Source of the DNA: Patescibacteria group bacterium
Lineage (GTDB): Bacteria; Patescibacteriota; Patescibacteriia; UBA1558; GWA2-36-10
Reading direction: 5' to 3'
Assembly (NCBI GenBank): GCA_028718865.1
Contig: JAQUKX010000005.1
Coordinates: forward strand, 368-64,367
Length of the DNA: 64,000 bases
Shown: piece after piece, positions 46,389-50,066 of the stretch
Numbering within the stretch: the stretch's first letter is position 1
Layout of the letters: each line of letters opens with the position of its first letter
The notes under the pieces: model-generated
What the model was told of the DNA's origin: nothing
Seen by the model: only the letters and a program-made list of their open reading frames with translations
Databases searched by the model: none
Program-made: the position numbers and the translations under genes

Positions 46389-46462
46389 ATGAAATCCAAT
46401 ATCAACAATGAAGTGTGTCACCCGAGGTCTTGACGAAGGGTGACAAATTAGAAGAAAATGCG

Positions 46463-46747
46463 ATGTATTACGTCTATATTTTACATTTAAACAATAGCTC
46501 TTTTTATACTGGGTACACTATAAATATTATCAAAAGATTGAAAGAGCATAAAAACGGAAGAGTTAAATCAACAAAAAATTTTAGACCAATCAAATTAGTT
46601 TGGTATTGTATTTTTCCATCTCGTTTACAAGCAAGAAGGTTTGAGAATTATCTAAAAACTGGCTCTGGTCAAGCATTTAGAAATAAAAGGTTAATAAAAA
46701 TTAATTTCATGGAGAGTTGGCAGAGCGGTCGAATGCGGCGGTCTTGA
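46463..46747 (+). CDS. GIY-YIG nuclease family protein (start at MYYVYILH); its 3' end overlaps tRNA-Ser(TGA)
   Basis: [18 protein letters not shown]...RLKEHKNG...WYCIF...[14 protein letters not shown] motifs. The ORF reads through into the tRNA gene at 46711. Confidence 0.65.
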
Positions 46748-46798
46748 AAACCGTTAGACCGAAAGGTCTCGGGGGTTCGAATCCCTCACTCTCCGCCA
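46711..46798 (+). tRNA. tRNA-Ser (TGA) with long variable arm, CCA encoded
   Basis: GGAGAGT acceptor pairs with ACTCTCC-G-CCA. Anticodon loop CTTGAAA. Variable arm TAGACCGAAAGGTCTC. Confidence 0.9.
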
Positions 46799-46828
46799 CA
46801 TCGTGCTAGCCCGAGGACCTTGAGACAC

Positions 46829-46920: not shown

Positions 46921-47970
46921 TTAGGGGGGGGTAGTATAATAGTCTTGTATGAAAGAATTTCTTAGATCATTACTAAAGTCATAAGCATTAGCGTGACTCA
47001 AAACACCCAAGTAAGATTGTAATGATTGTTCGTAAGTATATTTAGTTATTTTATCATCTTCATATTCATTTCTACGCAATTCTAATTTCCTTATCATCCT
47101 TTTCTTAGTATTAGCTCTAATGAGTTTGTGGTAAGGGAAAATAATATGACCCAGAAAATCAATACCTTGGCTATATTTACGAATAGATACTTTCTTAGGA
47201 TGTAATTGTAATAATAATTCATTAGATAAAAATTTAGATATTGGCTTCAAAATATTTTTTAAATACTCTTTGTCATCAGAAACAATTATAAAATCATCAG
47301 TATATCTGACATAATGCTTAACTTTCAATTCTTGTTTTATATACTGATCTAGCTTGTTCATGTAAATATTAGCGAAAATTTGTGAAGTGAGATTACCAAT
47401 CGGTAAGCCTTTCTTTTGAAATATATTAGAAGAATAACTATTAATTATATCTTCCATTAACCACATGGTATCTTTATCTTTTATACGTTTACAAAGAACA
47501 ACTAAAAGAACATAATGATCCACTGAATCAAAGAATTTCTTTATATCACATTTTAAAGCATAACAATTCCTTGTATTATTTTGACTTACTTTTCTTAATA
47601 TTTTAGCTAGAGTGTCCACTCCTTTGTGGCTACCTTTACCTTTACGGCAAGAAAATGAATTAGGAATAAAAGTCGGTTCAAATATTGGCAGCAATATTTT
47701 ATAAACAGCGTGGTGTAAAATTCTATCTCTAACCTTTGCCTTATGAATATGTCTAAGCTTAGGATCAGTAATATAGAAACCAGTATATGAACCATGACTA
47801 TAACTTTTATTGTCTAATTCCCTATGTAATTTAAAAACGTTTTCCTCTAAATTAAACTCAAACTTTTGGACATCAATTTTATGCCTTTTGTCTTTTTTAA
47901 ACTCATCCCAAGCTAAAAATAAATTTTTCAGTGAAATAATATCTTTAAATATATCATTATAAACTTTCAT
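46921..47970 (-). CDS. diversity-generating retroelement (DGR) reverse transcriptase
   Basis: 349-aa RT with no maturase or endonuclease domain. Conserved N-terminus (LFLAWDEFKKDKRHK...FEFNLEENVFKLHRELDNKSY). Motif 4 LPIGNLTSQIFANIYMNKLD carries the DGR-specific [ILV]GxxxSQ. Catalytic YTDDFII. A cognate TR/VR pair is adjacent. Confidence 0.9.
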   Translation of the reverse strand: MKVYNDIFKDIISLKNLFLAWDEFKKDKRHKIDVQKFEFNLEENVFKLHRELDNKSYSHGSYTGFYITDPKLRHIHKAKVRDRILHHAVYKILLPIFEPTFIPNSFSCRKGKGSHKGVDTLAKILRKVSQNNTRNCYALKCDIKKFFDSVDHYVLLVVLCKRIKDKDTMWLMEDIINSYSSNIFQKKGLPIGNLTSQIFANIYMNKLDQYIKQELKVKHYVRYTDDFIIVSDDKEYLKNILKPISKFLSNELLLQLHPKKVSIRKYSQGIDFLGHIIFPYHKLIRANTKKRMIRKLELRRNEYEDDKITKYTYEQSLQSYLGVLSHANAYDFSNDLRNSFIQDYYTTPP

Positions 47971-48321
47971 ATGGACAATTTTGACATTCCAATTTTTAAG
48001 AAAAGCTACGATTTATACAAAACACTACATGAGTATAGAAACTCAATTCCCAAAAAAGATAGATTTACTATTTTTGAGCGGTGTGAGAATATCTTACTTG
48101 ATATCATAGCCAACATACTTTTGGCTTCCAGTCAAAAACCTAAAGATAAATTACCAACTCTAAACAATATAAGTTTAAAATTAAACCTATTAAGAGTATT
48201 TATTCGTCTGCTCAAGGACATCAAAGCCATAGACAATAAGAAATATGTTAGTCTGGAAAGCATGGTTGATGAAATTGGTAAAATGCTTGGTGGCTGGATA
48301 AGATCTACTAAGATCAGATAA
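47971..48321 (+). CDS. avd: Avd (accessory variability determinant; four-helix-bundle family), encoded divergently from the RT
   Basis: 116-aa basic protein. C-terminal EIGKMLGGWIRS resembles the BPP-1 Avd ...EVGRILGSWIAR as I recall it. YDLYKTLHEY...IPKKDRFTIFERCENILLDIIANILLA fits the four-helix-bundle family pattern. Its ATG directly abuts the RT ATG in the palindrome CATATG at 47968-47973. Confidence 0.8.
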   Translation: MDNFDIPIFKKSYDLYKTLHEYRNSIPKKDRFTIFERCENILLDIIANILLASSQKPKDKLPTLNNISLKLNLLRVFIRLLKDIKAIDNKKYVSLESMVDEIGKMLGGWIRSTKIR

Positions 48322-48357
48322 ACGAAAAGGTGCTAAAAAGCACCCTTTCGTAACAAT
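48322..48357. other. hairpin immediately 3' of the TR (in TR sense); also usable as a terminator for avd
   Basis: acgaaaaggtgc-taaaaa-gcaccctttcgt, a 12-bp stem with one mismatch. Confidence 0.5.
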
Positions 48358-48366
48358 GAGAAGATA

Positions 48367-48495
48367 CTTCGGGACGAAGGCCGACACCGAGCCATAGTTG
48401 TCGTTGGCATTGTTGACCCAGTTGGTGTTGAACTTGACCTTGCCGTCGTTGAAGTTGAAGATTGGCGCGTTGTTGAACTGACCATCGGCATCCGG
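48367..48495 (-). repeat. DGR template repeat (TR); the adenine-bearing sense strand is the minus strand, the same orientation as the RT
   Basis: 129 bp aligning to 48905-49033. In the TR frame it encodes PDADGQFNNAPIFNFNDGKVKFNTNWVNNANDNYGSVSAFVP. It is AAC/AAT (Asn)-rich, the classic TR signature. Confidence 0.85.
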
Positions 48496-48833
48496 ATTAT
48501 TACTTCTGTCCATCTTTTATCACCAAGTATTGGGCTTTACTTCTTATTGGCTATAAGACTATATTCTCTTTACTTTGAATTTTATTTGGCAGCAACTAAT
48601 AAAGTATCTGCACCAGACAAAAGCAAGCAGTATCTCCTCAAAATAACACTCTCTTAAAAATCTTGATTTTTAAGACTCTGGTTATATATCTTTAAAGAGA
48701 AAGTCAGGCGATGGCAATTCTTAAAATGCCATTCACTAGCCCAACTCAAAAATATTATAACAAATTATTTAAACAAAATGAAAAGAGGGTTACCCACGGT
48801 ACGTGGTACCTATGGATAACCCCCCTGTGGCGA

Positions 48834-48852
48834 GTCACCGCTACGCGGTGAC
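48834..48852. other. GC-rich hairpin about 50 bp downstream of the VR
   Basis: gtcaccgc-tac-gcggtgac, a perfect 8-bp stem. Confidence 0.5.
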
Positions 48853-48898
48853 AAGGTCTCAAAGGCTCAAAAGAACTCAAGCCTTCAAGAGTTCAAGG

Positions 48899-49780
48899 CT
48901 AGGACTGCGGGACGAAGGCCGACACCGAGCCACAGCGGTCGCCGGCACCGTTGACCCAGCGGGTGCTGACCTCGACCTCGCCGCCGCTGAAGTGGAAGAA
49001 CGGCGCGCTGCGGAACTGACCATCGGCATCCGGAGCGAACTCGTCGCCCGCACAGTCGATCCAGAGATCGTCGTAGTGCTTGAGACGCTCGGGGTGGGTG
49101 AGCAGCATGATGGCGATCTCGTAGGCACCGAGACCGAACTCGTCGGAGGTGAAGACCTCGCGGGCTCGGCGGACGGAACTTCCACGGTGACGGAGACCGA
49201 ACTGGACCGGAACGAGCAGGATGTCGTGCTCCGATTGCTGGTCGCCGATGAGATCCAGCGCGTGGTTGGTGCGAGCCGATCGCTGCAGGTACTCGGGGCC
49301 GAGCTGGCCCTCGCGGTAGTTGTGGAACTTGCCGCCACGGGTCTGCTTGATCAGATCGAGGACGATCTGGACAGCCTCGCCGTAGGTCAGCGCGATCTTC
49401 TCCCACCTCGGGATGGCGAACCAGCCCTCGGCACCATCCGGCAGAACCTGACCAGCAACGTCCTCGTCCACCCGCATCGGGATGCCCGAGAAGAACTGGC
49501 GCAGGATCTTGCACTGCTCGGTGATCGGCTTGACCACGTAGCCCGACAGGTAGCCGTACTTGGAGGAGACCTCCTCGTCGGCGTACTGGTTGGAAACCGA
49601 GAGTTCCCTGATGGCCGCGATGATGCTGGCCTGGAACTCGCCGCCTCTCGAGATGAGCTTTTGGATGCGATCCTTGTCCAGGTTCGCTTCCTGAAGTGCC
49701 CGCTGAGCTGCGTCTTCGACGAAACGCTTGTATTGCTTGAGTTGACCGGACGTGATCGACGTGTTGGTCGTCATCGTCAT
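48899..49780 (-). CDS. DGR target protein (VR at the C-terminus; no signal peptide) with anomalously high GC
   Basis: RBS AGGAGG upstream of ATGACGATGACG. 293 aa ending ...PDADGQFRSAPFFHFSGGEVEVSTRWVNGAGDRCGSVSAFVPQS, collinear with the TR translation. Codon third positions are overwhelmingly G/C, unlike all neighbouring genes. Confidence 0.8.
   Translation of the reverse strand: MTMTTNTSITSGQLKQYKRFVEDAAQRALQEANLDKDRIQKLISRGGEFQASIIAAIRELSVSNQYADEEVSSKYGYLSGYVVKPITEQCKILRQFFSGIPMRVDEDVAGQVLPDGAEGWFAIPRWEKIALTYGEAVQIVLDLIKQTRGGKFHNYREGQLGPEYLQRSARTNHALDLIGDQQSEHDILLVPVQFGLRHRGSSVRRAREVFTSDEFGLGAYEIAIMLLTHPERLKHYDDLWIDCAGDEFAPDADGQFRSAPFFHFSGGEVEVSTRWVNGAGDRCGSVSAFVPQS
48905..49033 (-). repeat. 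DGR variable repeat (VR)
   Basis: By hand alignment to the TR there are 21 mismatches over 129 bp, 20 of them where the TR sense strand has A (T on the + strand). The 3' end carries an identical GC-rich IMH-like segment ggctcggtgtcggccttcgtccc, then cag in the VR versus aag in the TR. Confidence 0.85.
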
Positions 49781-50035
49781 ACCTCCTATTAAATCGCTGG
49801 AATGCTGTCCAGTGCAGTCTCATACTCCCTATGAGATGAGCTTTTTATGTGCTATTTAAAATTAACGCACAAAAAGCACACCTCATAGAGATTGCCTTGA
49901 ATTTATTGATATAAAGGACTATTTAAGATTATATTAGTATATCATATTTTAATTAAAATGTCAATATTCAGGATTTTGAATTTTAGCTTGAAGTGCGAAA
50001 TTAAGGCCAGTTTTATAAGGGTCTTAGAGCTAGCA

Positions 50036-50066
50036 CGAGGATGTTCGAATCCCTCCCTCTCCGCCA
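50036..50066 (+). pseudogene. 3' fragment of tRNA-Ser (duplicate of the last about 24 nt of tRNA-Ser(GCT) including CCA); candidate att-site remnant
   Basis: cgaggatgttcgaatccctccctctccgcca. The last 24 nt are identical to 46195-46218, and no 5' half is present. Confidence 0.6.

Follow-up and report, generated by a model that had tools for sequence, protein, structure and literature searches.

Two hairpins of a Patescibacteria diversity-generating retroelement: a probable 3′ end of the template repeat RNA and a possible homing hairpin

Patescibacteria and related nano-sized microbes account for a large share of the known diversity of diversity-generating retroelements (DGRs). To our knowledge, no DGR from these organisms has been reconstituted, and the Bordetella phage element is the only one whose RNA requirements are known. 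In the 140-nt spacer of Bordetella phage BPP-1, an Avd-binding stem-loop (Sp3-33) is followed by the primer strand (Sp47-56, with priming from A56), G57 and C58 (10.1101/2023.10.23.563531). The next segment (Sp59-70) pairs with a segment just 5′ of the template repeat (TR) and forms the cPRT Stop duplex, and the remainder of the spacer comprises a small stem-loop, A80 and A81, the single-stranded Thumb Ring, and a bRT-binding stem-loop. Handa et al. predicted Avd-binding stem-loops just downstream of the TR in 207 of 278 Avd-containing DGRs, including those of the candidate phyla radiation (CPR; 10.1101/2023.10.23.563531). The homing hairpin of BPP-1 has a GC-rich stem of 7-10 bp with free sequence and a 4-nt GRNA loop that is sequence-specific on the sense strand, and is located 4-34 bp from the variable repeat (VR) (Guo et al. 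2011, PMC3240598). Here we analyze the DGR on a 64,000-nt stretch of contig JAQUKX010000005.1 of a Patescibacteria group bacterium (the whole stretch is referred to as the window, and all coordinates are in window numbering), with a focus on hairpin 1, which lies next to the TR, and hairpin 2, which lies 3′ of the VR.

The locus is a DGR because 21 of the 22 mismatches between its 131-nt TR and VR repeats fall on TR adenines and because its proteins match RVT_1 and bAvd. The reverse transcriptase (RT) has more than 5,000 homologues, annotated mostly as Patescibacteria or CPR, and 167 loci with RT relatives were compiled for comparison (80 from genomes, 80 from metagenomes, and seven around the two closest proteins). 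Using a BLAST-based script, adenine-specific TR/VR pairs were detected in 108 of 168 loci, with the window counted. In almost all of these loci, the target gene with the VR is followed by the TR on the RT strand, an inverted avd gene, and the RT gene. This layout is presumably the B3 architecture, which represents 90% of the CPR DGRs according to Wu et al. An original prediction, made from the letters of the window, had proposed that a stem-loop next to the TR serves in priming or RT recognition and that a GC hairpin 3′ of the VR occupies the position of a homing cruciform. What it stated about BPP-1 agrees with the literature, as cDNA priming uses the spacer RNA adjoining the TR, whose first element binds Avd, and a GC hairpin 3′ of the VR promotes homing (Guo et al. 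2011, PMC3240598). We consider it fairly probable that hairpin 1 is the terminator-type 3′ end, and probably an Avd dock, of a TR RNA of ~430 nt, and that hairpin 2 is the counterpart of the homing hairpin. The original prediction was correct regarding the kind of both hairpins but not regarding a priming role of hairpin 1.

Covarying structures on both sides of the TR

The predicted inverted repeat acgaaaaggtgc/gcaccctttcgt is present at positions 48322-48351, and the remaining 6 nt of the interval that had been assigned to it (48322-48357) are unpaired. In TR sense the hairpin reads ACGAAAGGGUGCU-UUUU-AGCACCUUUUCGU. Its seventh pair is G.U on the minus strand (TR sense) and an A.C mismatch on the plus strand, and an additional U-A pair on the minus strand closes the UUUU loop, resulting in 13 bp. 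The folding energy of the minus-strand RNA was −19.6 kcal/mol, compared to −4.1 kcal/mol in shuffled sequences (z = −8.0), and that of the plus-strand RNA was −15.8 kcal/mol (z = −7.6); none of 200 shuffles was as good on either strand, so that hairpin 1 withstood the comparison with shuffled controls. The stem is close to the TR as proposed, but it does not follow immediately, since the TR/VR homology stops at 48366 and 14 nt (48365..48352) intervene. On its other side, the stem adjoins the avd stop codon (48319-48321). Hairpins of at least 12 bp occur at ~25 sites in the window (52 scan records vs 8.7 in shuffles) and 8-bp Watson-Crick hairpins at 24 sites (48 records vs 12.6 in shuffles). 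As neither hairpin is rare in this genome, what makes them significant is that they recur at corresponding places in related loci.

For hairpin 1, this recurrence was assessed on both strands in TR-anchored 75-nt windows from 93 distinct TR-downstream segments. The approach replaced a search of long windows anchored at the avd stop codon, which picked TR-internal structures, and a search bounded by this codon, which missed hairpins located inside the open reading frame (ORF). A hairpin of ≤−10 kcal/mol was found within 75 nt of the TR end in 85 of the 93 distinct loci, compared to 11.8% of random control windows drawn from the same loci (p = 2e-35). These hairpins had a median energy of −17.5 kcal/mol and stems of usually 12-15 bp that started mostly 10-20 nt past the TR, and their loops were usually 3-6 nt long (range 3-9) with unconserved sequence. 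The RNAalifold consensus of 34 aligned hairpins contained 13 pairs, all of them with compensatory changes. The closest relatives retain hairpin 1, with variation at the stem base among the alignment rows WIN, L081, and L083. Hence, the hairpin also held in the conservation check, with its position kept in 85 of 93 loci and stem sequences that covary.

A comparison of the VR-TR intergenic regions showed that almost all loci share blocks of conservation within the ~260 nt before the TR. The consensus structure of 44 aligned sequences comprised 50 pairs, of which 44 had compensatory changes. In this alignment, 94.3% of the cells were paired, compared to 67.7% after column shuffling and 37-48% with slid partners, and the covariation score was 0.815 vs 0.29. 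The region 48752..48497 appears to form a structured domain at the 5′ end of the TR transcript. A TATAAT-like hexamer was found before the first conserved block, GCTAATG, in 45 of 52 loci, mostly at a distance of 8-15 nt. The two 5′ hairpins of the domain, H1 and H2, have conserved UACGG loops. Helix H3 (helix 6 of the consensus) comprises 11 pairs, of which nine were changed on both sides, and 96.5% of its cells were paired. Its 5′ strand is followed by the stem-loop H4, the nearly invariant single-stranded AAUAAAAUUCA, and the long interrupted stem-loop H5, and then by the H3 3′ strand, the TR, the template strand, and hairpin 1. Rfam gave no match in 48300-48900 at E values up to 1, and only tRNAs and chance matches elsewhere in the window. 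No description of such a 5′ structured domain or of a permuted DGR RNA was found in the accessible literature, although an earlier description may exist.

The strand UGAGGAGAUACU of the 5′ domain, just 5′ of a conserved ACUGCUUG block, is the complement of AGUAUCUUCUCA (48368..48357), which is made up of the last three TR nucleotides and linker sequence. The mean duplex score in 74 loci was 9.24 for the native partners and 6.95 for permuted partners (sd 0.18), with none of 500 permutations reaching the native value. Fully compensated variants of the duplex were AGAAAAAGAA/TTCTTTTTCT, AGATTTTAGA/TCTAAAATCT, and GCTGGGAAGGTACT/AGTTTCTTCCCAGC. With the register fixed on ACU/AGU in 49 loci, 75.2% of the cells were paired, compared to 62.6% in shuffles (0 of 500 as high) and 33-53% with slid partners, and the covariation score was 0.331 vs 0.161. 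The helices and the long-range duplex are thus supported by covariation. A48369, which lies in the TR directly 5′ of the duplex, is changed from A to C in the VR, whereas A48368 within the duplex is unchanged, which fits cDNA synthesis beginning at the duplex edge. Hairpin 1 begins 5 nt past the template strand of this duplex (0-8 nt in most loci) and 14 nt past the TR end, a position of the BPP-1 type. Hairpin 1 itself has no complementarity to the TR, and the complement of the TR 3′ end and linker sits ~135 nt upstream of the TR instead. Contrary to the original prediction, hairpin 1 is not the primer.

Beyond hairpin 1, the sequence in the 3′ direction runs antisense to avd. In RNAduplex and ungapped comparisons of the TR 3′ end or the TR upstream flank with the 160 nt downstream, native complementarity was no better than cross-locus complementarity. 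No synonymous constraint was detected in avd, where the third-codon-position entropy was flat at ~0.9 along the gene. Spacer-like elements antisense to avd and 3′ of hairpin 1 were dropped as candidates because complementarity stayed at the cross-locus level and the third-position entropy was flat. A pairing between the GSV codons of the TR and the antisense strand of the avd GGW motif, considered at first, was dropped as well.

Hairpin 2 and the 3′ flank of the VR

The second predicted hairpin, gtcaccgc-tac-gcggtgac at 48834-48852, has a perfect 8-bp stem and a 3-nt loop as described (−12.6 kcal/mol, z about −5). With six G-C pairs, the stem is of the 7-10 bp GC type in which structure counts over sequence (Guo et al. 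2011). The distance to the start of hairpin 2 is 51 nt from the end of the VR homology and 46 nt from the stop codon of the target gene, in agreement with the ~50 bp stated originally. The class of this hairpin was defined by a perfect stem of at least 5 bp that is closed by C-G and carries a G-N-A loop. Over the 130 nt downstream of 108 distinct VRs, a search for it revealed 19 C-GNA-G triloop hairpins in sense and none in mirror orientation (p = 4e-6). Their density 3′ of VRs was 1.35 per kb, compared to 0.039 per kb across all loci (35-fold). They were carried by 18 of the 108 VR flanks, most commonly started at +47 to +52, and had varied stems. In the closest relatives, the hairpin reads GTCACCGC-GTA-GCGGTGAC in WIN and L081 and GTCCTTGC-GCA-GCAAGGAC in L083, with three compensatory pairs between conserved flanks. 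Triloops of the C-GNA-G type have an unusual stability, above all in single-stranded DNA.

In most loci, the VR is followed by an array of CTTGA motifs, in a subset by a small GC hairpin, and then by a terminator hairpin with a T-run. The original prediction saw hairpin 2 but missed the array, which has a period of 8 nt and fills the gap between the VR and hairpin 2. In the window, six CTTGA motifs start at +7, +15, +23, +33, +41, and +49. Family-wide, the array is a sense-strand-specific feature. The first 55 nt after the VR show a 9.4-fold enrichment of CTTG, the spacing between successive TTGD motifs is 7-9 nt in 263 of 345 cases, and the mean number of CTTGA copies is 4.2 after the VR, compared to 1.2 in control windows and 1.3 after the TR. 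The repeats of the window fold as a 15-bp hairpin with G.U pairs on the minus strand only (48857-48890). The copy number is often near five, which may bring the Avd pentamer to mind. Moreover, an exact TTATCCACA (DnaA-box consensus) was observed in seven of 108 VR flanks at +72 to +84, always in sense and ~29-fold over background.

A homing role of hairpin 2 is plausible. Based on its GC-rich stem, the sense-strand G..A loop, and the compensatory changes, hairpin 2 would most likely be the local counterpart of the BPP-1 hairpin with the G..A loop that promotes homing. The predicted cruciform is supported by the same features but not by loop length or distance, since the loop is the 3-nt GUA instead of a 4-nt GRNA and hairpin 2 is 51 nt instead of 4-34 bp from the VR. 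These two departures from the published BPP-1 pattern weigh against a homing role, as does the absence of the hairpin class from 83% of the related VR flanks. The terminator directly after hairpin 2 (48825..48785) is canonical, and both could form a compound mRNA 3′ end. A tentative alternative, which we find somewhat less convincing, is therefore that hairpin 2 belongs to such a compound 3′ end of the target mRNA, acts in stability or termination, and was inherited with one flank subfamily, with no role in homing. Many of the 18 flanks that carry the class share a module of TCGNC followed by a GGGTTATCCAC-type terminator, and according to Wu et al., only 34% of DGR VRs are followed by GC inverted repeats, as this explanation would lead one to expect. 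It accounts less well for the C-G closed G-N-A loop that occurs exclusively in sense (19 to 0) and for the 35-fold enrichment, which parallel the GRNA requirement of BPP-1, and for a stem sequence that varies freely with the loop type retained.

Strand and role of hairpin 1

The strand on which hairpin 1 functions was examined across the 85 loci that carry it. A T-tract of at least 6/8 T overlapping or following the 3′ arm was present in TR sense in 65 loci and in avd sense in 21 (p = 2e-10). When both strands were searched independently, the TR-sense hairpin was more stable in 49 loci and the avd-sense hairpin in 29 (p = 0.003). In 21 of the 85 loci, the hairpin lies at least 13 nt inside the 3′ end of the avd ORF (the reading frame was verified by hand in L073) and is therefore not the terminator of avd there. 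Together with the pair that is G.U in TR sense and A.C on the other strand, the biases in stability and T-tracts and the ORF-internal loci indicate that hairpin 1 is used by the TR-sense RNA. In the window, a GC-rich stem-loop coincides with a U-tract on this strand (6/8 T in CUUUUCGUUUAU), and family-wide the A-U pairs of the stems have the A on the 5′ arm in 360 cases and the reverse in 157, which resembles intrinsic terminators. For the TR transcript, hairpin 1 has the appearance of a Rho-independent terminator, and bidirectional termination is possible in some loci.

It is unlikely that hairpin 1 is merely the terminator of avd, or a shared bidirectional terminator of avd and TR, and has no role in the DGR RNA. 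The adjacent avd stop codon, the 5′ A-run and 3′ U-run, which look like those of a bidirectional terminator, and the ~25 similar intergenic hairpins in the window would all fit such a function. However, the plus strand has the A.C mismatch and only a weak T-run (CTTTCGTAAC), both family-wide biases favor TR sense, the hairpin is ORF-internal in a quarter of the loci (21 of 85), and its spacing tracks the TR end and the duplex and not only the avd stop codon.

In the reading that we favor, the RNA would be transcribed from the minus strand in the order of a −10 box near 48758, the 256-nt 5′ domain, the TR, a pyrimidine-rich linker of 14 nt, and hairpin 1 with its U-tract. The most likely functions of hairpin 1 would be termination and the protection or stabilization of the 3′ end of the DGR RNA. 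Strand UGAGGAGAUACU of the 5′ domain would pair with the TR end and linker, so that hairpin 1 would start 5 nt 3′ of the template strand, and by this position hairpin 1 would probably also be the Avd docking stem-loop. We infer the equivalence of these elements to those of BPP-1 and the priming from the strand 48640..48629.

A snap-back mechanism, in which the paired 3′ end of the RNA at hairpin 1 is itself the primer and is extended by the RT over the linker into the TR, is highly improbable. The U-tract can pair with the A-run and would thereby give a base-paired 3′ end 5-14 nt from the TR, and spacer-like elements were not detected further 3′. Against this, the strand 135 nt upstream of the TR covaries with the TR end and linker and is followed, as in BPP-1, by G-C and a second duplex; a primer-template duplex is thus already supplied by the upstream strand. 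In addition, snap-back priming would copy the linker, to which the VR has no homology. That both hairpins are chance inverted repeats, as the frequency of hairpins of both sizes in the window might suggest, can be dismissed, because no shuffle was as stable, both recur at the same position in relatives, and both show compensatory changes.

Several observations weigh against the favored reading of hairpin 1. The hairpin is missing in eight of the 93 relatives. The U-tract in the window is interrupted (UUUUCGUUUAU) and partly within the stem, and hairpin 1, like hairpin 2, was not listed by a consensus terminator scan, whose T-run rule counts only from the end of the full stem. The evidence that hairpin 1 probably docks Avd is its position; its loops are unconserved and the stems mostly perfect, whereas BPP-1 uses flipped-out bases, and the UACGG-loop hairpins H1 and H2 could be the protein-binding sites instead. 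Both the 3′ end of the RNA at hairpin 1 and its start near 48747 are points that we infer. Finally, an RNA that ends at hairpin 1 requires that the RT gene has its own promoter within avd.

Beyond the role of hairpin 1, we lean slightly towards the view that, in Patescibacteria DGRs whose avd is inverted between TR and RT, the RNA has the element order of its Bordetella phage counterpart in circularly permuted form. The 256-nt domain 5′ of the TR would then contain everything that positions the primer and the template on RT-Avd, namely the primer strand, the G-C connector, the strand of the stop duplex, a stem-loop, the conserved A-rich single strand, and the long stem-loop. The cDNA would be cis-primed near 48629 and start at A48369, and hairpin 1 would be the sole 3′ element, serving both as the Avd-side stem-loop and as terminator. 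More speculatively, the CTTGA array, which is present 3′ of the VR and not after the TR, may mark the VR as the recipient.

Taken alone, the two hairpins are ordinary: one is a TR-proximal stem-loop or terminator and the other a GC hairpin flanking the VR, both of known kinds. The placement of hairpin 1 would fix where a compact RNA of ~430 nt ends at its 3′ side; the other functional parts of this RNA can be read from covariation, and this RNA appears to be a new, permuted variant of DGR RNA. For work in vitro, the analysis points to 48762..48310 as a minimal construct and predicts a priming site. If the permutation is true, the architecture of the RT-Avd-RNA complex seen by cryo-EM would be conserved in three dimensions with a differently connected RNA chain. 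Surveys limited to 100 nt downstream of the TR would overlook the functional RNA of these DGRs, which form a large group. Target-site recognition is the step of DGR homing that is least understood, and the CTTGA array and the GNA-triloop hairpin are candidates for it.

Features of the locus and comparison with known systems

The features of the locus are listed in Table 1. The RT contains IGNLTSQ, which we take to correspond to the [I/L]GxxxSQ motif typical of DGR RTs. The start codons of RT and avd stand back to back (CAT and ATG, 47968-47973) with zero intergenic space, as in the closest relatives (82% identical), and therefore the promoter of each gene must sit within the other gene.

Table 1 Positions of DGR genes, repeats, and RNA or DNA elements in the window
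Feature	Position	Strand	Description
DGR reverse transcriptase	46921..47970	-	RVT_1 match 2e-28; IGNLTSQ present
avd (bAvd family)	47971..48321	+	bAvd match 7e-19; convergent with TR, divergent from RT
U-rich tract CUUUUCGU UUAUCUGAUCUU	48310..48327	-	Overlaps the base of the 3′ arm of hairpin 1 and extends beyond; best window 6/8 T
Hairpin 1	48322..48351	-	13-bp stem, one G.U pair, UUUU loop; last structured element of the TR transcript
Template strand: last 3 nt of TR (AGU) and 9-nt linker AUCUUCUCA	48357..48368	-	
Template repeat (TR)	48366..48496	-	From repeat comparison
5′ domain of TR RNA	48497..48752	-	Non-coding; helices H1-H5 and conserved single-stranded AAUAAAAUUCA
H3 3′ strand GGACAGAAGUA	48501..48511	-	Ends 4 nt before TR start
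H3 5′ strand UUGCUUUUGUCU	48615..48626	-	Candidate counterpart of the spacer strand in the BPP-1 cPRT Stop duplex
Candidate primer strand UGAGGAGAUACU	48629..48640	-	Complementary to 48368..48357; followed by G-C (48628-48627)
Extended −10-like box TGTTATAAT	48754..48762	-	Just upstream of the 5′ domain
Target-gene terminator-type hairpin	48785..48825	-	Followed by UUUUCAUUUUG; 5′ arm bears TTATCCATA
Hairpin 2	48834..48852	-	Perfect 8-bp GC-rich stem, GUA triloop on the sense strand, C-G closing pair
CTTGA-type array	48853..48897	-	Six copies, ~8-nt period; between VR and hairpin 2
Variable repeat (VR)	48904..49034	-	3′ end of target gene 49780..48899

The target gene (48899-49780) has a G+C content of ~62%, and the surrounding region ~28-33%. 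Family-wide, the mean G+C content of the 700 nt upstream of the VR was 0.53, compared to 0.37 in the adjacent RT gene, and the excess reaches well past the VR. A long hairpin in the 5′ leader of the target gene (49822-49895) surfaced through weak matches to miRNA-precursor models. The DGR cassette is flanked by the 3′ end of a tRNA-Ser(TGA) gene and a partial copy of a tRNA-Ser 3′ end (46769-46798 and 50037-50066), and just inside these copies lies a 19-nt inverted repeat with 84% complementarity (46801-46819 and 50020-50038). The gene neighborhoods of the DGR differ among close relatives. Together, the tRNA-Ser bracketing, the inverted repeat, and the varied neighborhoods suggest a mobile cassette, inside which no integrase was found. 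Just upstream of the cassette, an ORF with a GIY-YIG domain is located between tRNA genes (46415-46747), and its listed 3′ end overlaps tRNA-Ser.

Among the known systems, retron msr-msd RNAs resemble the proposed RNA in that the template is enclosed by long-range pairings and that priming is thought to be internal and next to a duplex. They differ in the RT clade; moreover, the DGR described here needs Avd, its adenine-mutagenized copy homes to the VR, and no product of the msDNA type is implied. With intrinsic terminators, hairpin 1 shares a GC-rich core stem, a U-rich tract on the TR-sense strand, an A-run upstream, and the location at the end of a non-coding unit, and ~25 other intergenic hairpins in the window are similar to it. 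It differs from them by the interrupted and partly paired U-tract and by its fixed spacing to a retroelement RNA duplex. Hairpin 2 is like the homing hairpin of BPP-1 in its 8-bp GC-rich stem past the TR/VR homology, the variability of this stem, and the sense-only G..A loop. It differs by a GNA loop of 3 nt and by its location 51 nt from the VR and behind the CTTGA array, and its class occurs in ~17% of the loci.

Hairpin 1 is a member of a described kind, because stem-loops of this sort were predicted downstream of the TR by Handa et al. As in BPP-1, where the Avd-binding stem-loop is the first one 3′ of the TR, it closely follows the template strand (5 nt past it here and 7 nt in BPP-1), and both stem-loops are capped by a tetraloop, with stems of 13 bp here and 11 bp in BPP-1. 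In contrast to the BPP-1 element, which has a UNCG loop, hairpin 1 has a UUUU loop and a perfect stem with no obvious flipped-out bases, and it is the last element of the RNA with a terminator-like U-tract. This terminator character, and the fact that nothing else was found 3′ of the TR, appear to be what sets it apart from the described kind.

The wider RNA resembles that of BPP-1 in the succession of a primer strand, a G-C connector of 2 nt, a strand that pairs 5′ of the TR, a stem-loop, an A-rich single strand, and a long stem-loop, and in the template strand and stem-loop on the other side of the TR. The BPP-1 spacer (AY029185) reads ...UAGGUGGUCA56-G57-C58-CGGUUCUGUCCU..., and the window reads ...UGAGGAGAUACU-G-C-UUGCUUUUGUCU... 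The RNA of the window additionally has the two 5′ hairpins with UACGG loops, and there is no sequence similarity to BPP-1. In BPP-1, the 3′ end of avd is followed by the TR and the 140-nt spacer, whereas here avd is on the opposite strand and 3′ of the RNA. A further difference is the proposed circular permutation of the chain, in which the primer and stop strands and the elements that follow them lie 5′ of the TR and not 3′. If the BPP-1 chain is cut between the Avd-binding stem-loop and the primer strand and its ends are joined, the order of its elements matches that of the RNA described here.

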